Source: a virus (Duplodnaviria; Heunggongvirae; Uroviricota; Caudoviricetes). Taken from it: a stretch of DNA of 4,367 nucleotides. Position numbers and translations under genes: made by a program. Positions 1-4,367 of the stretch are shown here, piece after piece. The stretch is taken from IMG/VR virus record IMGVR_UViG_2711768068_000016, positions 1 through 4,367 of that record, one strand, 5' to 3'. How positions within the stretch are numbered: position 1 is the first letter of the stretch; the number at the start of each line of letters is the position of its first letter. A model generated the notes under the pieces. The model had not been told where the DNA came from. It did not search any database and worked only from the letters and a program-made list of their open reading frames with translations.

Positions 1-1761
1 TTCGTTACGCCGCTTTTTGTTATCCCACAGCAGACGCATCTTTCCTTTTTCCCACTTCTCCACAAGCTCTTCCGCGACCAGTTGCTGCGCCTCTGTCTGC
101 GAAAAAATCTCCGGATCATCAGGAAAACGGATGGCATACGACGTGGCTTCATCCGCAGGAGTGGGATCGGCTTTCATACGGGCATAGAGAATTTCTTTTG
201 CGGTGTCCGTCCCCACTTCACACAGATACACGCCCCGCTGATTGCGGGTTTTCGGCATGGTGATCACCGGCTTGCCATAGACAGATGCGCCTTTTACCGG
301 CAGCACCCGGAAAACACCGTGTTTTTTTGACCTCTGATAGACAATTTCACCATCGATCCCCCCGGTGTCCCAGCAGACACGGGAAATGGTCATTTCGGTT
401 CCGTCTGCATGGCAGTATTTTTTGTTGATCGCCGCATCCACACGTAACAGCGTCTCTTCCTCATCGGGACGGCCCATAATGATGATTTTATCCACCAGAA
501 AGGCTTCCTCTCCCGGTGCCCATCCCCAGACATACATCTCAAAACGGTTTCGCTGCGAGTCAATGCCCGCCGTCAGATAAACCACCCGGGCAGGCACCGC
601 CGCCGTGTAACGCACCACCTTATCCATCAGTACCTGGTGATCGAGTTTTTCGCCCACGGCCTCTTCCCAGGTCTCGCCCAGCGTGGTGTTCACAAAGGTT
701 TTCAGGCCGTTGGGATCTTTCAGTGCATCCAGCCAGTCATAGACTATCTGTATCCAGGTGGTGAACGGACTGTACGCCGTCCAGATATGGAACGTGATGG
801 AGCGCGGCGGCGGAATTTCATCCCCCCGGGCGCTGAAAAACATCAGGCCGTCACGGGTCCACATACCCGTGTTTTCACAGATCCAGCGCCCGTTACTCTG
901 GTCAAGCTCAGACTGATGGATCACGCAGCCATGATGTTCACAGAGGTAGAAAACGCTTTCGGGGCTGTCCTTCTCCCATTTAAGGCCAAAAGGCGTGGAT
1001 TCATCGCCAAATTTCAGATACTGCGCCTCCTCACAGTGCGGGCAGGGCACATAGAAACGCATGAAATGCGCCGACTCGTTGGCCGCTTTTTCGATCTGGC
1101 AGGTACCTTTGATTTTAGGCGTCGAGCCGCGAATGGATTTTGGCCATACAGAGCCCTCAATACGCTTATCCCCCAGCAGGGTTGGCGAGCCCTCTTTTTC
1201 GACATCCGGCTCGAACGAGGAAAGCTCGTCATAGCAGACCACGTCCACGGATTTTTCACGGTAGTTTTTGGCGGCTGCACCGCCCAGGCACCAGAAACCG
1301 ACGCCCGATGAAAAGCGTTTCAGCGTGAGAGTATTGTCACGATGTTTACGACCCAGCCATGGGGAAAGGTCTTTCAGGCATGGCACGTTCCGAATCGTCG
1401 CCTCCACGTGAGACTTCATAAAATCTTCAGCGGCAGAATCCGTGGGCTGAAAAAGCAGACTGTTTCGGGATTTATGCTCAATAAAATACCCGGCGACTCC
1501 CAGCAACATCTTTGTATAGCCAACACGGGCAGATTTAATCAGATTAACAGTGCGGATCTGATCATTCCCCATACTGTTCATGATGGCGATCTGGAACGGC
1601 AGCGTTTTCCATTCTCCCTCACCATATGAGGATTCTTTCGGCAGATAATAATACTGGTCAGCCCATTCAACTGCCGTCATCGGTACAACCCTGACCAGAG
1701 GCTGCAGCGCAACCGAAACGGCGGCCACCATATTATTCAGTTGTTGCTCTGATATATTCAT
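1..1761 (-). CDS. A: Phage terminase large subunit (lambda gpA-like), N-terminal ~587 codons; C-terminus lies beyond window position 1
   Basis: The minus-strand frame is open from ATG 1761-1759 to the window edge with no stop; the ORF track lists no closed ORF here, consistent with the stop lying outside the window. By-eye translation starts MNISEQQLNNMVAAVSVALQPLVRVVPMTAVEWADQYYYLPKESSYGEGEWKTLPFQIAIMNSMGNDQIRTVNLIKSARVGYTKMLLGV and ends LVEKWEKGKMRLLWDNKKRRNE at position 1. This is colinear with my recollection of lambda gpA (MNISNSQVNRLRHF...TAVEWADANYYLPKESAYQEGRWETLPFQRAIMNAMG...KSARVGYSKMLLGV...KKRRNEALDCF). Walker-A-like KSARVGYT and Walker-B-like VVCYDE motifs are present. Plus-strand ORFs at 82-1629 are antisense shadows of this gene. 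Confidence 0.93.
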   Translation of the reverse strand, partial: MNISEQQLNNMVAAVSVALQPLVRVVPMTAVEWADQYYYLPKESSYGEGEWKTLPFQIAIMNSMGNDQIRTVNLIKSARVGYTKMLLGVAGYFIEHKSRNSLLFQPTDSAAEDFMKSHVEATIRNVPCLKDLSPWLGRKHRDNTLTLKRFSSGVGFWCLGGAAAKNYREKSVDVVCYDELSSFEPDVEKEGSPTLLGDKRIEGSVWPKSIRGSTPKIKGTCQIEKAANESAHFMRFYVPCPHCEEAQYLKFGDESTPFGLKWEKDSPESVFYLCEHHGCVIHQSELDQSNGRWICENTGMWTRDGLMFFSARGDEIPPPRSITFHIWTAYSPFTTWIQIVYDWLDALKDPNGLKTFVNTTLGETWEEAVGEKLDHQVLMDKVVRYTAAVPARVVYLTAGIDSQRNRFEMYVWGWAPGEEAFLVDKIIIMGRPDEEETLLRVDAAINKKYCHADGTEMTISRVCWDTGGIDGEIVYQRSKKHGVFRVLPVKGASVYGKPVITMPKTRNQRGVYLCEVGTDTAKEILYARMKADPTPADEATSYAIRFPDDPEIFSQTEAQQLVAEELVEKWEKGKMRLLWDNKKRRNE

Positions 1762-2239
1762 CCAGCAAATCCGGTAATTTATCCCCTGCCCGCGCACACT
1801 GATTTGCGCCCTTTGCAATAAGGGTTTTCAGATGGTCAATATGACGTGGCGTTAAATCCGGGAACTGTCGCTGCATGGATAACGGAATGGAATCAAGCGT
1901 ACTGGACAATGCCATCGCCAGTTTGCTGAGGGCGAAAACGCAGAAGTCTGAATCGATGAGCTTACCTTCGGTTACCTGATTTTTAAGTTTTTGAGCTACA
2001 GCCTGTTCTTCTGTCAGTTCAGCTCTGGCCCGAAGCAGCCTTTCCTCCAGTTCTCCCCCGTCATCAGGTGTTCTCTGATTGTGTTGTCGCCGCTCGCGAT
2101 CTATCTCCAGTACAGTTTTAACGTCATATAAAACTTCCCTCCCCCGACGTTCAACAGGAGGAACGCCCCATTTATCAAATGCCTGAACAGAGATACCGAT
2201 GGAGGAGGCCATATCACTTTTATTCAATAAAAAGGCCAT
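1733..2239 (-). CDS. nu1: Phage terminase small subunit (lambda Nu1-like DNA-packaging protein)
   Basis: Track ORF 1733-2344 (minus) translates to ...GREVLYD...AVAQKLKNQ...DFCVFALSKLAMALSSTLDSIPLSMQRQFPDLTPRHIDHLKTLIAKG...DLLDEYIRATTE, matching recalled lambda Nu1 (NEVLYD...AQELKN...AFCTFVLSRIAGEIASILDGLPLSVQRRFPELENRHVDFLKRDIIKA...GLLSEYIEQSG). Start placed at ATG 2239-2237 (MAFLLNKSDMASSIG...) because GGAGAGGAG lies immediately upstream and it aligns with the lambda N-terminus MEVNKKQLADIFG. In-frame ATGs at 2257 and 2344 are alternatives, but the 2344 extension would read through the cosB repeats. Stop TAA at 1735-1733. Confidence 0.88.
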   Translation of the reverse strand: MAFLLNKSDMASSIGISVQAFDKWGVPPVERRGREVLYDVKTVLEIDRERRQHNQRTPDDGGELEERLLRARAELTEEQAVAQKLKNQVTEGKLIDSDFCVFALSKLAMALSSTLDSIPLSMQRQFPDLTPRHIDHLKTLIAKGANQCARAGDKLPDLLDEYIRATTE

Positions 2240-2271
2240 CTCCTCTCCATAAGTCATCGATAAAAAGCGAA

Positions 2272-2280
2272 ACAACAACC
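2272..2280 (+). repeat. cosB R-like element copy 1 (ACAACAACC), nearest the Nu1 start
   Basis: Exact 9-mer; extended match AAACAACAACC at 2270-2280, shared with copy 3. Confidence 0.55.
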
Positions 2281-2349
2281 ATGTGTTTTTGCAAAACCAT
2301 TTGATATCATTGATATTTTTCGCATTGACGACATCAAAACACATCGTAA

Positions 2350-2358
2350 GGTTGTTGT
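2350..2358 (-). repeat. cosB R-like element copy 2 (GGTTGTTGT on plus strand, i.e. ACAACAACC inverted)
   Basis: Exact reverse complement of the 9-mer, lying between the two direct copies. Confidence 0.55.
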
Positions 2359-2408
2359 ATTTATTTTATTTTCACCTTACTTATCAATTAGATATACCAA
2401 ACAATTAA

Positions 2409-2417
2409 ACAACAACC
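2409..2417 (+). repeat. cosB R-like element copy 3 (ACAACAACC), nearest cosN
   Basis: Exact 9-mer; extended match AAACAACAACC at 2407-2417. It lies about 40 nt from cosN, comparable to lambda R3. Confidence 0.55.
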
Positions 2418-2455
2418 ACCCCCTCAAAAAATCTCATAAATAGTGAAAACGCGCG

Positions 2456-2467
2456 AGGTCGCCGCCC
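2456..2467. other. cosN core: 12-nt cohesive-end sequence AGGTCGCCGCCC (reverse complement of the lambda left-end overhang GGGCGGCGACCT)
   Basis: Exact 12-mer seen in sequence. The flank toward Nu1 (rev-comp CGCGCGTTTTCACTATTTATGAGATTTTTT) closely resembles the recalled lambda left end (CGCGGGTTTTCGCTATTTATGAAAATTTT). The flank on the other side (2468-2660, cgtaaccggtcggatcgccggaaaggacccg...) closely resembles the recalled lambda right end (CGTAACCTGTCGGATCACCGGAAAGGACCCG...). The site lies at the expected position immediately upstream of Nu1. Confidence 0.85.
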
Positions 2468-2660
2468 CGTAACCGGTCGGATCGCCGGAAAGGACCCGCA
2501 AAATGATAATAATTATCATCTACATGTCACAACGTGCATCTACGCCATCAAACCACGTCAAATAATCAATTATGACGCAGGTATCGTATTAATTGATCTG
2601 CATCAAATTAACGTAAAAGCAACTTCAGATAATACAAATCAGCAACACTGAATATGGGGC
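2468..2660. other. Lambda right-end-like non-coding DNA adjacent to cosN (expected to contain cosQ)
   Basis: By recollection, about 90 percent nucleotide identity to the lambda right-terminal about 200 bp (…GATAATGATTATCATCTACATATCACAACGTGCG…CAAATAATCAATTATGACGCAGGTATCGTATTAATTGATCTGCATCAACTTAACG…). No ORF present. Confidence 0.7.
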
Positions 2661-2666
2661 AACATT

Positions 2667-2891
2667 ATGTCATCAAAGAACAGAACCCGCAGAACAACAA
2701 CCCGCAACATCCGATTTCCAAACCAGATGATTGAACAAATTAACATCGCTCTTGATCTGAAAGGTTCAGGAAATTTTTCAGCGTGGGTTATTGAAGCCTG
2801 CAGAAGAAGATTAATTAATGAAAAATATTCTCAATTTGTACCCAACAAAGACAAACACGACCAGAGCACCTGTTCAGACAGGTTTACTTAA
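2667..2891 (+). CDS. ylcI: Small DUF3950 / YlcI-YnfO family protein (lambda orf-64 homolog), putative ribbon-helix-helix DNA-binding protein
   Basis: 74-aa ORF MSSKNRTRRTTTRNIRFPNQMIEQINIALDLKGSGNFSAWVIEACRRRL... The first ~50 residues are nearly identical to the recalled lambda right-end ORF / E. coli YlcI (MSTKNRTRRTTTRNIRFPNQMIEQINIALEQKGSGNFSAWVIEACRRRL...). The pattern, a short beta-strand followed by two helices, is RHH-like. Stop TAA at 2889-2891. Confidence 0.8.
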   Translation: MSSKNRTRRTTTRNIRFPNQMIEQINIALDLKGSGNFSAWVIEACRRRLINEKYSQFVPNKDKHDQSTCSDRFT

Positions 2892-2908
2892 ACGACTTAT
2901 ATATGACA

Positions 2909-2937
2909 CAAAAAGCGACCACTAAAGTCGCTTTTTC
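2909..2937. terminator. Putative bidirectional Rho-independent terminator between the convergent ylcI-like and PerC-like genes
   Basis: Hairpin AAAAAGCGAC-cactaaa-GTCGCTTTTT: GC core stem GCGAC/GTCGC at 2915-2919 and 2927-2931, A-tract 2910-2914 on one side and T-tract 2932-2936 on the other, so it reads as stem plus U-tract in both directions. It sits 18 nt after the plus-strand gene stop and 36 nt after the minus-strand gene stop. Confidence 0.5.
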
Positions 2938-2972
2938 TTATGGTAACAGGCAATAACGCTCTCAGATATTTT

Positions 2973-3287
2973 TTAGCATTTTTTTGACCGCGCGTTTCCG
3001 GACGTATTCTGTTCTCCTGTCCCTTTATATCGTCGGAATACCCGCCGCTCTTCAAATCCCATTCCCAACTCAGAATGTAGTCTGTTGACCGCTTGTTTTA
3101 TTTCGGTCAGGTTCACCGGTGAAACCGGAGTCCGGCGCGCCTTACGCAAACACTCTGCTCGTTTCTGTGCCGCCACTTTTCTTTTCTGGTCATCACTTAG
3201 CTGTACCATCACTTTTGCCCATCGTTCAGCTGCTCTCCGGTACAGTCCTTTTTTCTCCAGACATTCTGCCAGGTGATCATGTAGCAT
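2973..3287 (-). CDS. PerC-family transcriptional regulator (Pch/YfdN-like prophage moron)
   Basis: 104-aa ORF MLHDHLAECLEKKGLYRRAAERWAKVMVQLSDDQKRKVAAQKRAECLRKARR... carrying the LExKGLYRRAAxRW signature I associate with the PerC family (EPEC PerC, O157 Pch proteins, K-12 YfdN). Good RBS: GGAGG 6 nt upstream of ATG 3287. Stop TAA at 2975-2973. Confidence 0.82.
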   Translation of the reverse strand: MLHDHLAECLEKKGLYRRAAERWAKVMVQLSDDQKRKVAAQKRAECLRKARRTPVSPVNLTEIKQAVNRLHSELGMGFEERRVFRRYKGTGEQNTSGNARSKKC

Positions 3288-3750
3288 AAGTAACCTCCGT
3301 TTATCTACAGACTGCCATCCTGAATTTACCGTCCTTAATAAGACAACAATAAAAAACTAATTATATAAAAACAATAAAAATAATATACAAAAAAACTAAA
3401 CAACAAAGAAAAGCAAATCATATCTGGCATTTTAATTGAAAGAGCAATTACCGAACAAAAGACGCTGACTATATACTCAAAACCAAACAACAATTCTGCC
3501 AATCAGGTATCATGGCAACACACGGAATTACCATGTTTTTGCCTTCTCTGCCCATACAATACGGGCATATACTTCATACTCTATTGTAATATTTCTATCC
3601 ATGCGCCCCACTCCATTTACCTGTAAATAATATTCAAAATATTTATCACAGAAATCGTTTTTGGCCATGAACTGAGCACACTATAAAGTCCGGAACTGAC
3701 TCTTTGTTAAATTACCTTAACGTTACCAGTAACACCTTCATAACAAAACA
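3288..3750 (-). promoter_or_regulatory. AT-rich non-coding island: presumed promoter/long leader of the PerC-like gene and region downstream of the Rz stop
   Basis: About 460 bp with no ORF of 60 codons or more in any frame. Extremely A-rich on the plus strand (e.g. 3340-3420 aataaaaaactaattatataaaaacaataaaaataatatacaaaaaaactaaacaacaaagaaaag). GC content is far below the flanking genes. No specific -35/-10 could be assigned with confidence. Confidence 0.4.
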
Positions 3751-4224
3751 TCACGGTATACACTGGGTACGGATATATTCCTGTGCTCCTTCCAGTTGCT
3801 TCTGCATTGCCATCAGCCGTTCTCTGAGGATGAAATAATCCCGTTCAGCGGCTTCTGCCAGTCGGGGACCGGTTGCATTATCCACGCCGGAGGTGATGGG
3901 GGCTTTACGCAAGGAGCCTGGACAGTTGGCGTTGATGCGCAGGCGCTTACGACCAGCGGCAACATCAGCACGCAGAGTTTCATTTTCAGCTCTCGCATCG
4001 GCTAATTCCCTCGAGTATCTGGCATCAAGTGCAGCAACATCACGCTGGCGCTGCTGCATATCAGTAATGGTTGCATTTGCCAGCTCCAGCTCACTGACTT
4101 TTTTATCGCGCTGCTCTTTGTAGGTTATGGCGTTATCGCGGTAATGATTCAGCCCCAGACTAAGCGCACCACAGACCACCAGCAGAATAACGGTAAACGC
4201 GGAAAGCATTCGGTTTATGCTCAC
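3751..4224 (-). CDS. rz: Rz i-spanin (inner-membrane spanin subunit), lambda Rz-like
   Basis: 157-aa ORF MSINRMLSAFTVILLVVCGALSLGLNHYRDNAITYKEQRDK...DVAALDARYSRELADARAENETLRADVAAGRKRL...SGVDNATGPRLAEAAERDYFILRERLMAMQKQLEGAQEYIRTQC, colinear with recalled lambda Rz (…AVNHYRDNAITYKAQRDKN…DVAALDAKYTKELADAKAENDALRDDVAAGRRRL…ASGVDNAASPRLADTAERDYFTLRERLITMQKQLEGTQKYINEQCR). N-terminal TM helix present. GTG start at 4224 overlaps the stop of the upstream ORF (GTGA), as ATGA does in lambda R/Rz. Confidence 0.93.
   Translation of the reverse strand: MSINRMLSAFTVILLVVCGALSLGLNHYRDNAITYKEQRDKKVSELELANATITDMQQRQRDVAALDARYSRELADARAENETLRADVAAGRKRLRINANCPGSLRKAPITSGVDNATGPRLAEAAERDYFILRERLMAMQKQLEGAQEYIRTQCIP
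3813..3998 (-). CDS. rz1: Rz1 o-spanin (outer-membrane lipoprotein spanin subunit), embedded out of frame within Rz
   Basis: 61-aa ORF MRELKMKLCVLMLPLVVSACASTPTVQAPCVKPPSPPAWIMQPVPDWQKPLNGIISSSENG: signal peptide with lipobox (VVSAC), proline-rich mature region. Matches recalled lambda Rz1 (MLKLKMMLCVMMLPLVVVGCTSK…CVKPPPPPAWIMQPPPDWQTPLNGIISPSERG). Entirely nested in the Rz gene in a different frame. Confidence 0.9.
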   Translation of the reverse strand: MRELKMKLCVLMLPLVVSACASTPTVQAPCVKPPSPPAWIMQPVPDWQKPLNGIISSSENG

Positions 4225-4367
4225 CCCACCAGCCCTGCCGAAGTCAACGCCATCCAGGCCATGGAAAGAAAAAGAGCAACCAGCATTAGTGAAAATGAAA
4301 TGCCGACAAGTACACAGAGGCTCTTCACCAGCGTTATGAGTTTATCTGATATCATTAGCCACCCCAT
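4221..4367 (-). CDS. Partial ORF encoding a hydrophobic, probably membrane-spanning C-terminus (48 codons visible; start at or beyond the window edge); unclassified lysis-cassette member
   Basis: Minus-strand frame from the window edge: MGWLMISDKLITLVKSLCVLVGISFSLMLVALFLSMAWMALTSAGLVG, ending at TGA 4223-4221, which overlaps the Rz GTG start. The ATG at 4367-4365 is in frame but the ORF may extend beyond the window. The sequence is not lambda R-like (lambda R ends ...GGTVREIDV). Confidence 0.45.
   Translation of the reverse strand: MGWLMISDKLITLVKSLCVLVGISFSLMLVALFLSMAWMALTSAGLVG

Follow-up and report, generated by a model that had tools for sequence, protein, structure and literature searches.

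An AT-rich gap between Rz and a PerC-family gene very probably acts as the cis-regulatory region of pchB in a lambdoid EHEC prophage

The AT-rich gap that separates the Rz gene from a PerC-family gene in the prophage DNA studied here very probably controls, in cis, a pch gene of the pchB type. This gene belongs to a moron-like cassette that a lambdoid prophage of enterohaemorrhagic Escherichia coli (EHEC) carries between Rz and cos. The gap is the pchB promoter and upstream control region that has been studied before and represents no new element. Pch, a homologue of PerC, activates the LEE1/ler promoter, and pchB serves EHEC as a switch, located on a prophage, for its attachment machinery. 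In the following, the window refers to the whole stretch of 4,367 nucleotides that was analysed (positions 1 to 4,367 of IMG/VR record IMGVR_UViG_2711768068_000016), while the tract refers to the intergenic gap of 463 bp at 3288-3750, i.e., from the Rz stop codon to the ATG of the PerC-family gene in the list of open reading frames (ORFs). Table 1 collects the features and their coordinates.

Table 1. Features of the tract and its surroundings in window coordinates.
Feature	Position	Strand	Evidence
Rz spanin gene, with Rz1 embedded at 3813-3998	3751..4224	-	ORF list; Pfam Phage_lysis, E 1e-46
Distal part, cassette-specific spacer, ~36% GC, no strong start	3451..3750	-	homology, diversity, Cappable-seq
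46-codon ORF, phrog_2157	3528..3668	-	PHROG E 2e-37
T-rich region upstream of the promoters (A-rich on plus strand)	3375..3450	-	composition; UP-element-like
P1 -35 hexamer TTGTTT	3369..3374	-	PWM scan; kept in all four alleles (TTGTCT in strain A25)
Perfect TATAAT inside the P1 spacer	3360..3365	-	PWM top match TTGTAT-19-TATAAT
P2 transcription start (T heading a T-run), 69-nt 5' UTR	3356	-	Cappable-seq TSS 1912636
P1 -10 hexamer TATTGT, 17-nt spacer, AT-rich discriminator TGTCTT	3346..3351	-	invariant in 8/8 aligned copies
P1 transcription start (A), 52-nt 5' UTR	3339	-	Cappable-seq TSS 1912653
5' untranslated leader, Shine-Dalgarno GGAGG at 3298-3294	3288..3338	-	sequence read
pchB-type PerC-family regulator gene, 104 aa, WP_001302717.1	2973..3287	-	Pfam PerC (PF06069), E 5.4e-44, residues 1-89
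Anti-SD segment inside the CDS, overlapping DicF-complementary ACCAGAA	3184..3203	-	MFE fold
Hairpin between convergent pch and ylcI, A-run and T-run flanks	2912..2938		fold: 11-bp stem, AAAAAGCGACU/GGUCGCUUUUU

A preceding sequence-only reading had described 3288-3750 as an AT-rich, strand-asymmetric tract. This description stands, and the coordinates are exact since the Rz stop codon occupies 3751-3753 (minus strand) and the PerC-family ORF starts at 3287. The tract shows a GC content of 33.0% (A 39.7%, AT skew +0.19, GC skew -0.36) compared to 49% for the pch coding sequence (CDS), 53% for both Rz and the large terminase gene, and 47% for the window. The composition is uneven, i.e., the extreme A-skew is restricted to a core at 3331-3500 (GC 25.9%, A 53.5%, AT skew +0.44), which holds all A-runs of 5-7 bases (3351-3356, 3367-3371, 3376-3380, 3389-3395), while 3501-3750 has 36% GC and an AT skew of about zero. 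The excess of C over G is present along the entire tract. The 170-bp stretch of lowest GC content in the window falls into the tract (24.7% at 3321), compared to a mean of 49.0% (sd 7.0%) for stretches outside of it. With regard to AT skew, the core value of 0.44 is high relative to the outside mean of -0.006 (sd 0.17), the maximum of the window being located elsewhere (0.51 at 4150). On its upstream side the tract adjoins Rz, the last lysis gene, whose homologue is annotated as 'lysis protein' in homologous records, and late-operon transcription would come into the tract from this side.

The assignment to pchB is based on identity in sequence and position. Over the CDS, pch matches Sakai pchB at 100% identity, and its product shares the protein accession of EDL933_RS10075. 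The promoter block and the leader likewise agree fully with Sakai pchB (100%), the distal part to 99.3%; compared with EDL933 pchB, 2 of the 463 tract positions are mismatched. Sakai pchB (ECs_2182, prophage Sp11) and EDL933_RS10075 are found at the same place after Rz/Rz1, encode the same protein, and the same starts apply to them, whereas their packaging module past cos differs from that of the window (terminase about 69% identical, with a mosaic junction near 2427).

The tract is present in 673 of 5426 complete E. coli genomes, at full length every time, and the pchB-type promoter block in 533 genomes. A PerC-family gene adjoins the tract in every copy examined, and pch is also carried by all full-length IMG/VR loci (87/87). 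The gene order Rz/Rz1 - tract - pch is common to the O103, O55, O157, A25 and plasmid copies, and the best matches to the whole tract come from O103:H2, O26 and related non-O157 EHEC strains. A search of the INPHARED phages gave a single match, an unannotated 3-kb amplicon record, and a search of genome contigs with the Pch protein returned two loci only, one from E. albertii and one from an Escherichia sp.

An empty site supports the earlier suggestion that this regulatory DNA of a virulence regulator was acquired horizontally. The comparison with a pch-less EDL933 prophage (2328369-2329426) places the limits of the cassette at 2802 and 3760, and homology to that prophage ends at 3761, i.e., a moron-like cassette is lacking in an otherwise homologous prophage. 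Morons, as reportedly described by Juhala et al. in 2000, are additional genes, each with a promoter and a terminator of its own, inserted between conserved phage genes. The pch cassette resembles them in that it sits between the late genes Rz and ylcI/cos, is an insertion missing from a related prophage, has its own promoters (with starts seen by Cappable-seq), a terminator hairpin and an AT-rich promoter region, and is expressed in the lysogen. It differs from them in its location at the Rz-cos junction instead of the PR' site used by stx and the anti-sRNAs, and in a further 300 bp of DNA, apparently without function, ahead of its promoter. Judging from its predicted fold, the hairpin likely acts as a bidirectional intrinsic terminator that ends the pch transcription unit; the consensus terminator scan does not list it.

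To place transcription starts, we used the published Cappable-seq data of EDL933 (PMC10469882, supplement 6) and mapped them base for base onto the window. These data stem from a strain other than the host of the window, with identical promoter and leader sequence, and the multicopy nature of the pch loci can distort the assignment of reads. For EDL933_RS10075, i.e., the pchB copy, two starts are reported (1912653 and 1912636), both present in all conditions including plain LB (PMC10469882). They are the starts of P1 and P2 and lie 17 nt apart. TSS 1912653 had been predicted from the pchA copy beforehand and was then found in the published list. For the pchA copy, the main start is 1271063, with read scores of 164-2240, and the minor ones are 1271048 and 1271038 (PMC10469882). 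In the Cappable-seq table that covers 1912200-1912599, none of the TSSs listed for the pchB copy falls into that stretch; orphan or antisense starts may still exist in the distal part of this copy. Two weak starts of the pchA copy, each seen in one condition, correspond to about 3713 (minus strand, sense) and about 3293 (plus strand, antisense) of the window.

With starts 52 and 69 nt upstream of the ATG, P1 and P2 give a short leader. The long leader that had been proposed is thus contradicted in both copies, the 5' UTRs of the pchA copy measuring 53, 38 and 28 nt, while the promoter cluster proposed for the tract does exist in the form of two constitutive starts. A single promoter near 3287 with no other transcripts had been named as the outcome that would speak against the sequence-only reading. 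The observed picture comes close to it, i.e., all strong starts are found less than 70 nt from the ATG, and what remains beyond them in the pchA copy are the two weak single-condition starts.

The -10 hexamer of P1 is located 6 nt upstream of the mapped start and is unchanged despite a diverged spacer. In the PWM scan, P1 ranks third among 3164 minus-strand hexamer pairs, with several other candidates scoring about equally. A strict sigma-70 consensus scan gave no match in 2850-3900, and P1 is weak by consensus. The perfect TATAAT in the P1 spacer is found in the pchB-type allele only and is missing from the pchA, pchC and A25 alleles. It is likely the -10 element of P2. This assignment is uncertain, given that the start comes as close as 4 nt behind TATAAT and coincides with a T of a T-run.

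Upstream of the promoters, the T-run and TTTTTGT at 3395-3389 are kept in all alleles. We infer that 3375-3450 is a platform for the binding of regulators and nucleoid proteins. Targeting of the tract by H-NS had been proposed from its AT-richness, and H-NS binding is plausible from composition, the tract having the low G+C content of xenogeneic DNA (tract 33%, core 26%, window 47%). PMC4764244 makes a general statement on this subject. A stronger version of this view takes the tract primarily as an H-NS nucleation and silencing platform joined to a structured leader of several hundred nt, such that most control of pch would occur by de-silencing and at the RNA level. A GC content of 26-33%, far below that of the flanks, agrees with this, as does the wealth of promoter-like sites in AT-rich DNA, several of which score about as well as P1. 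We nevertheless consider it unlikely. Its long-leader half is already refuted by the leader of 52-69 nt. With regard to silencing, the H-NS nucleation motif TCGATAAATT is not enriched at up to 2 mismatches (9 matches in the window compared to 5.7 expected), and the 2 matches inside the tract are neither of them better than 2 mismatches. No IHF core site was found. A wedge-model estimate gives a curvature of 11-15 degrees per 30 bp for the tract, above the 8-11 of the genes and no higher than the 15-17 around cos and the pch terminator, and the A-tracts, irregularly spaced by 16, 9, 13 and 20 bp, show no clear helical phasing. The promoters are also not tightly silenced, since the pchA start is strong (164-2240) and the pchB starts are present in all conditions.

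The published start mapping places both promoters next to the gene; therefore, we see no long leader, hidden small RNA or hidden gene in the tract. For a small RNA or cis-antisense RNA, e.g., an A/C-rich plus-strand sponge of GcvB-like G/U-rich seeds or an Hfq ARN binder, the sequence basis would be the many ACAACAA and ARN-type repeats on the plus strand at 3340-3500 (direct repeats D1-D3). These lie in DNA of low complexity, which commonly yields such matches by chance. EHEC prophages carry many small RNAs, e.g., AgvB, AsxR and HnrS (PMC4104026, PMC13502914), but those known come from the PR' moron site or from different prophages; the weak antisense start near 3293 in the pchA copy was detected in a single condition. 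An Rfam search of the whole window (E<=1) gave no match in the tract and one spurious lncRNA match outside of it, neither strand of the tract contains an intrinsic terminator, and 0 of 64 Sakai Hfq-CRAC peaks fall into 1183680-1184144, i.e., the pchA tract. The small RNA that had been suggested is thus not borne out, and we regard such a transcript as extremely improbable. The Hfq-CRAC peaks listed for Sp11 and Sp14 likewise fall outside the pch tract. AgvB, AsxR, HnrS/EcOnc10-12 and Pas were rejected as occupants of the tract, having no Hfq-CRAC peak coordinates within a pch tract, and the papers on Pas and HnrS make no link to pch. With regard to coding potential, the statement that the tract holds no credible ORF stands insofar as the records listed, out of 688 E. 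coli records with the tract, show no PGAP annotation in it; it does not account for the 46-codon ORF at 3668..3528, which was once annotated. It is very improbable that a real 46-aa protein is made from the distal part, be it via the late transcript or via the weak start near 3713. The frame is open in 52 of 54 variants (disrupted in the other 2), the PHROG family exists, the ORF was annotated in RefSeq in 2017 as EDL933_RS29835, and the weak TSS of the pchA copy lies 45 nt upstream. Against these points, the PGAP call has since been dropped and is gone from the current RefSeq, that TSS appears in 1 of 8 conditions with a read score of 2.9, and a Shine-Dalgarno sequence is lacking. The polymorphic sites are distributed as 7/5/3 over codon positions 1/2/3, a count of low statistical power given very similar sequences, and the replacements are radical (G>E, R>G, Y>N, G>V, W>R), so that selection on the frame is not apparent. 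Variants elsewhere are truncated to 30-31 aa (31 aa in E. albertii) or frameshifted to 54-59 aa. A search of 5.8 billion proteins returned near-identical E. coli and E. albertii matches only, Pfam and NCBIfam gave no match, and phrog_2157 is a family of unknown function. The ORF is thus probably not a functional gene. A 25-codon ORF at 3512-3589 (plus strand), which had also been mentioned, has no match among the protein families of Pfam, NCBIfam and PHROGs.

Across 54 variants, nucleotide diversity amounts to 0.012-0.027 in the distal part and 0.005 in the pch CDS compared to 0.15 in 3375-3450. The distal 300 bp thus appear to drift about neutrally, roughly at the rate of silent sites and with no detectable function of their own. 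When compared to shuffled sequences, the distal part folds with z = -3.0 on the minus strand and z = -1.8 on the plus strand. Its origin as a perB remnant from perABC was rejected, as homology to plasmid perC starts only at 3315.

Taking the tract as the pchB control region, we compared it to the pch paralogues. Sakai pchA (ECs_1091) and pchC (ECs_2737) show the same architecture, i.e., Rz, about 463 bp and pch. Relative to the window, their CDS are 99.4-99.7% and their distal parts 96-98% identical, and they share the -35 and -10 hexamers of P1 as well as the +1 context ATTAAGG. The main TSS of pchA is at the position equivalent to P1, with a 53-nt UTR. In contrast, about 29-30% of the columns differ in their promoter block (3330-3447, 118 bp), which also contains indels. 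For 3375-3450, the pchB type shares 64-69% identity with the types of pchA and pchC, compared to 96-99.7% in the flanks. Neither pchA nor pchC has the TATAAT of P2, and pchA uses minor starts with UTRs of 38 and 28 nt instead. According to papers that cite it, Honda 2009 reports that LrhA regulates pchA and pchB differentially. The promoter block is the sole part that differs sharply among pchA, pchB and pchC, which would fit the reported differential regulation.

More distant relatives share less of the region. The homology to plasmid perC and to other pch-like genes of Escherichia starts at 3315, 3313 and 3370, the E. albertii homologue sharing sequence from window position 3370 downstream only. 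The perC gene of the EPEC EAF plasmid (perABC) is a homologous LEE1/ler activator of the PerC family. Its DNA is about 80% alike from 28 nt before the ATG through the SD region and most of the CDS. It differs in being the third gene of an operon with no AT-rich promoter tract of its own, and it has nothing in common with the window upstream of 3315.

Based on these data, we propose the following regulation. Two sigma-70-type promoters, set close together where the tract meets the gene, drive pch transcription in a lysogen, as the mapped starts show. The T-rich coding-strand DNA of 3375-3450 (about -40 to -110), which would not be transcribed from P1 or P2, is probably a UP-like, regulator-binding stretch and may also undergo silencing by nucleoid proteins. 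According to three papers (PMC4456613, PMC13012123, PMC7279287), LrhA is a direct activator of pchA and pchB, Lrp/butyrate acts on the pchA promoter, and ppGpp-DksA is an input to pch. LrhA, Lrp/butyrate and ppGpp-DksA would all work through 3375-3450, and the AT-rich discriminators of P1 and P2 would fit a positive control by ppGpp/DksA. Binding sites of LrhA, Lrp and H-NS were not located in the sequence.

On prophage induction, Q-antiterminated late transcription would read through from Rz across the tract into pch because no terminator separates the two genes; the terminator scan lists no terminator-like site in 2850-3900 on either strand. Reports that group 1 pch genes are induced by the SOS response would agree with such late read-through. 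Translation would then be gated downstream of the tract, i.e., by sequestration of the SD through an anti-SD inside the CDS, to be relieved by DicF. The DicF/anti-SD model of pch translation control is taken from PMC7769764 and PMC9438474. The MFE fold pairs 3298-3283 with 3188-3202, and the 5' end of DicF (UUCUGGU) is complementary to 3190-3184. The duplex energy of full-length DicF with the mRNA is marginally better than that of shuffled sequences (p = 0.05), and our reading is instead based on the local seed of 7 bp together with the pairing in the MFE fold.

The comparison also allows for an evolutionary reading. It is possible, if somewhat doubtful, that the block of about 118 bp at 3330-3447 is kept as a few deeply diverged regulatory alleles (pchA, pchB, pchC and A25 types) while its flanks are homogenised by gene conversion among prophages. 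If true, the activator copies of EHEC would differ almost only in their promoters, which would have been selected to integrate different signals, and the conserved distal spacer would act as the upstream homology arm for swaps of the promoter block between prophages.

Overall, the layout of the pchB region can be given at base resolution, with two promoters close to the gene, a leader of short length, a T-rich platform upstream that is not transcribed and a distal spacer that looks functionless. It also cautions that AT-rich gaps before virulence regulators should not be read as long leaders when no TSS data are at hand. The difference between the paralogues is almost exclusively found in the 118-bp block, which makes it a target for dissecting the responses to LrhA, butyrate, nitrogen status and the stringent response. 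The time at which the pathogen attaches to the gut depends largely on how and when pch is turned on.

The AT-rich gap at 3288-3750 (the tract) is the already known regulatory region of pchB, one of the paralogous PerC-homologue (pch) genes of EHEC prophages. Alleles were assigned by alignment to the three named pch genes of O157:H7 Sakai. On this basis the window carries the pchB allele, i.e., promoter block, leader (5' UTR) and CDS are 100% identical to Sakai pchB (ECs_2182), with 99.3% identity in the tract's distal part (3451-3750). The encoded protein is WP_001302717.1, the accession also of EDL933_RS10075, and between the window and EDL933 the pchB tracts show only 2 mismatches in 463 positions, both in the distal part. 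The tract is found in 673 of 5426 complete E. coli genomes (median of 3 copies per genome), always at full length, with Rz on one side and a PerC-family gene on the other in every copy examined.

In minus-strand orientation, the window corresponds to the terminal part of a lambdoid prophage's late region, and the tract is the exact 463-bp gap from the Rz stop codon to the PerC-family ATG. A sister prophage of EDL933 has Rz followed by ylcI without pch, and its homology to the window ends at 3761 (Rz end) and restarts at 2801 (inside ylcI). The tract in its entirety is thus part of a moron-like cassette carrying pch (2802-3760), as opposed to the phage backbone. Upstream DNA in common with plasmid perC-like genes begins only at 3315, with another Escherichia species at 3313 and with the E. 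albertii homologue at 3370; the upstream region of the latter is different in sequence and equally AT-rich. Judged from such alignments, the common core of PerC-family loci is the promoter-proximal segment plus leader and gene.

Features of the window (P1 and P2 are the two pchB promoters)
Feature	Position	Strand	Remark
Rz	4224..3751	minus	ORFs and Pfam
Rz1	3998..3813	minus	embedded in Rz
Tract	3288-3750		between Rz and PerC-family gene
P1	-35 3374-3369; -10 3351-3346	minus	TTGTTT, 17-nt spacer, TATTGT, 6-nt AT-rich discriminator
P2	TATAAT 3365-3360; start 3356	minus	perfect TATAAT, exclusive to pchB allele; tentative -10
PerC-family gene	3287..2973	minus	104 aa
YlcI/YnfO (DUF3950) gene	2667-2891	plus	convergent to pch
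Lambda-like cosN sequence	2456-2467		AGGTCGCCGCCC
Nu1-like small terminase	2344..1733	minus	large terminase next

The pch-less sister prophage holds an unrelated, partly GC-rich 362-bp filler between ylcI and Rz (L014 38598-38960; EDL933 2328597-2328959), which suggests that the Rz-ylcI junction is a general site for variable inserts. Compared with the EDL933 pchB prophage, the window is 99.6% identical over 2427-4292 and only ~69% identical in the terminase genes (2-1678), placing a mosaic junction at 2427, adjoining cos. Other genomes have HNH-terS-terL modules, IS elements or nleH/espS next to the same pch cassette. A single site of the window matches the sigma-70 consensus (GTGACA-16-TATCAT, 2503-2530, minus); it lies between ylcI and cos and faces the terminase genes. 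The Cappable-seq start 1913351 of the EDL933 ylcI/ynfO orthologue (DUF3950 protein) corresponds to window 2641 on the plus strand, 7 nt past a GATAAT -10.

The AT-rich, strand-asymmetric character of the tract, as well as its coordinates, hold exactly as the sequence-only reading had given them, with the qualification that "extreme" fits only about 170 bp. The whole tract has 33.0% G+C, 39.7% A on the plus strand, an AT skew of +0.19 and a GC skew of -0.36, compared to 49-53% G+C in pch CDS, Rz and large terminase. Its extreme part is 3331-3500 (25.9% G+C, 53.5% A, AT skew +0.44), which contains all A-runs of 5-7 bases, while 3501-3750 has 36% G+C and no AT skew. The window-wide minimum of G+C per 170 bp (24.7%) lies inside the tract; stretches outside average 49.0% (sd 7.0%). 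Besides being A-rich, the plus strand of 3288-3750 has 22.5% C vs 10.6% G, such that antisense RNA of the tract would resemble a Rho-utilisation site and sense RNA would be G-rich. This composition may help to suppress antisense transcription from the tract's many promoter-like sites.

Transcription starts were taken from published EDL933 Cappable-seq data for eight conditions (PMC10469882), where the pch loci are multicopy, which can distort read assignment. For pchA (CDS 1270696..1271010, minus), start 1271063 is listed in all conditions with read scores of 164-2240, next to minor starts at 1271048 and 1271038 (PMC10469882); the respective leaders measure 53, 38 and 28 nt. From the pchA alignment we predicted a pchB start 52 nt before the ATG, and the table then gave exactly 1912653. 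For pchB (CDS 1912705..1913019), 1912653 and 1912636 are both present in all conditions (PMC10469882) and map base for base to 3339 (A) and 3356 (a T heading a T-run) on the minus strand. The long leader proposed earlier is thus contradicted, since these starts leave pchB leaders of only 52 or 69 nt. A minus-strand PWM scan puts P1 3rd among 3164 hexamer pairs. Its hexamers and +1 context are kept in all four allele types across a fully diverged spacer, which argues for a real promoter by classical signature. For P2 the -10 assignment is tentative because the start is merely 4 nt past TATAAT. Within the distal 400 bp of the pchB copy there is no start among those listed in the one covering Cappable-seq table; for the pchA copy, two weak starts are given, each in one condition, namely a sense start with a read score of 2.9 (window ~3713) and an antisense start (window ~3293). 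With a cassette absent from the sister prophage and two mapped starts, the earlier view is borne out that the tract is regulatory DNA of horizontal origin and holds a cluster of promoters.

The stretch 3375-3450, extremely T-rich on the coding strand, lies upstream of P1 and P2 at about -40 to -110, i.e., outside their transcripts, where it would act as an UP-element-like, regulator-binding stretch. Nakanishi et al. in 2006 reportedly described ppGpp and DksA as direct activators, with which the AT-rich discriminators of P1 and P2 are compatible. No binding sites for LrhA, Lrp or ppGpp/DksA-type inputs were located in the window sequence. Reviews and later papers describe LrhA as direct activator of pchA and pchB, the pchA promoter as activated by Lrp with butyrate, and NtrC as working via LrhA (PMC4456613, PMC13012123, PMC7279287).

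H-NS binding, also proposed earlier, is plausible given the AT-richness, and Fukui et al. describe a general association of H-NS with the known virulence genes that Sakai phage-like elements carry (PMC4764244). Specific support is not seen at this locus. The H-NS nucleation motif is not enriched (9 matches vs 5.7 expected in the window, 2 of them in the tract), no IHF core site was found, and the A-tracts of the tract show no helical phasing. Wedge-model curvature of the tract is 11-15 degrees per 30 bp, and cos and the likely pch terminator are at least as high. Tight silencing is argued against, since in eight of eight conditions the pchA start shows strong usage, and the pchB starts are likewise seen in all, plain LB included.

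Other functions considered for the tract were a small RNA and small ORFs. The former finds no support: an Rfam search gave no match within the tract, neither strand of it has terminator-like sites, and 0/64 Hfq-CRAC peaks (Sakai) fall into the pchA tract (1183680-1184144) or adjoining pchB/pchC. The prophage sRNAs already known map either to the PR' moron site or to other prophages (PMC4104026, PMC13502914). The minus-strand RNA of 3441-3760 has a predicted fold of higher stability than that of shuffled sequences (-86.6 vs -73.4 kcal/mol, z = -3.0), including a predicted 7-bp hairpin GCCCGUA-UUG-UAUGGGC.

That the tract is without a credible ORF agrees with the annotation, as no NCBI-pipeline gene occurs there in the listed records of 688 complete E. 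coli records; the suggested 25-codon ORF has no protein-family match. The sole ORF ever annotated in the tract has 46 codons (3668..3528, minus; phrog_2157, former EDL933_RS29835) and no Shine-Dalgarno (SD) sequence. A search of 5.8 billion proteins finds no relatives beyond near-identical sequences from Escherichia, among them a 31-aa truncation (E. albertii) and frameshifted 54-59-aa forms. For variation we used 101 IMG/VR loci, of which 87 are full length, all with pch, and yield 55 unique variants; adding the window sequence and removing two variants with aberrant upstream context leaves 54. Among these, the 46-codon ORF has 7/5/3 polymorphic sites at codon positions 1/2/3, a test of low power given that all copies are very similar, with radical replacements and two disrupted copies. 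A functional small protein is thus very improbable. The distal part as a whole shows no sign of constraint, i.e., it is not more conserved than silent sites (~11% polymorphic sites vs ~5% at pch third codon positions).

No terminator was found between Rz and pch, and upon prophage induction, Q-antiterminated late transcription would continue from Rz across the tract and into pch, in line with the SOS induction reported for group 1 pch genes. Located 3' of pch at 2912-2938, and common to pch and ylcI, is an 11-bp hairpin with A- and T-runs on its sides. In the predicted P1-transcript fold, SD and AUG (3298-3283) pair with CDS 3188-3202, 86-100 nt into the CDS, and ACCAGAA (3190-3184) is the complement of UUCUGGU, the DicF 5' end (sequence from EDL933 dicF, L116 4288-4339, Rfam 75 bits). 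The predicted pairing and complementarity reproduce a published model, in which DicF binds an anti-SD within the CDS and frees the ribosome-binding site (PMC7769764, PMC9438474). This control is positioned outside the tract.

The feature we single out is the promoter block, a discrete and hypervariable segment whose flanks are homogenised. Nucleotide diversity among the 54 sequences is 0.005 in the pch CDS, 0.012-0.027 in the distal part and 0.04 in the leader, compared to 0.12 in the core promoter and 0.15 in the T-rich block. When comparing the window with Sakai pchA, Sakai pchC and the allele of strain A25 (L007, L013 and L002), 29-42% of the columns differ within the 118-bp block 3330-3447, which spans both promoters plus the T-rich DNA upstream of them. 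For the flanks (distal tract, Rz end, pch CDS) this holds for only 1.4-5.9% (Fisher p 1e-20 to 1e-24 vs block). The pchB-type block occurs in 533/5426 genomes, usually in single copy, a count that misses pchA- and pchC-type blocks since all blastn matches have at least 95% identity. Given the divergence of block vs flanks, the pch paralogues are near-identical genes with sharply different promoters, consistent with the title of Honda et al. 2009, which names "differential regulation of PchA and PchB".
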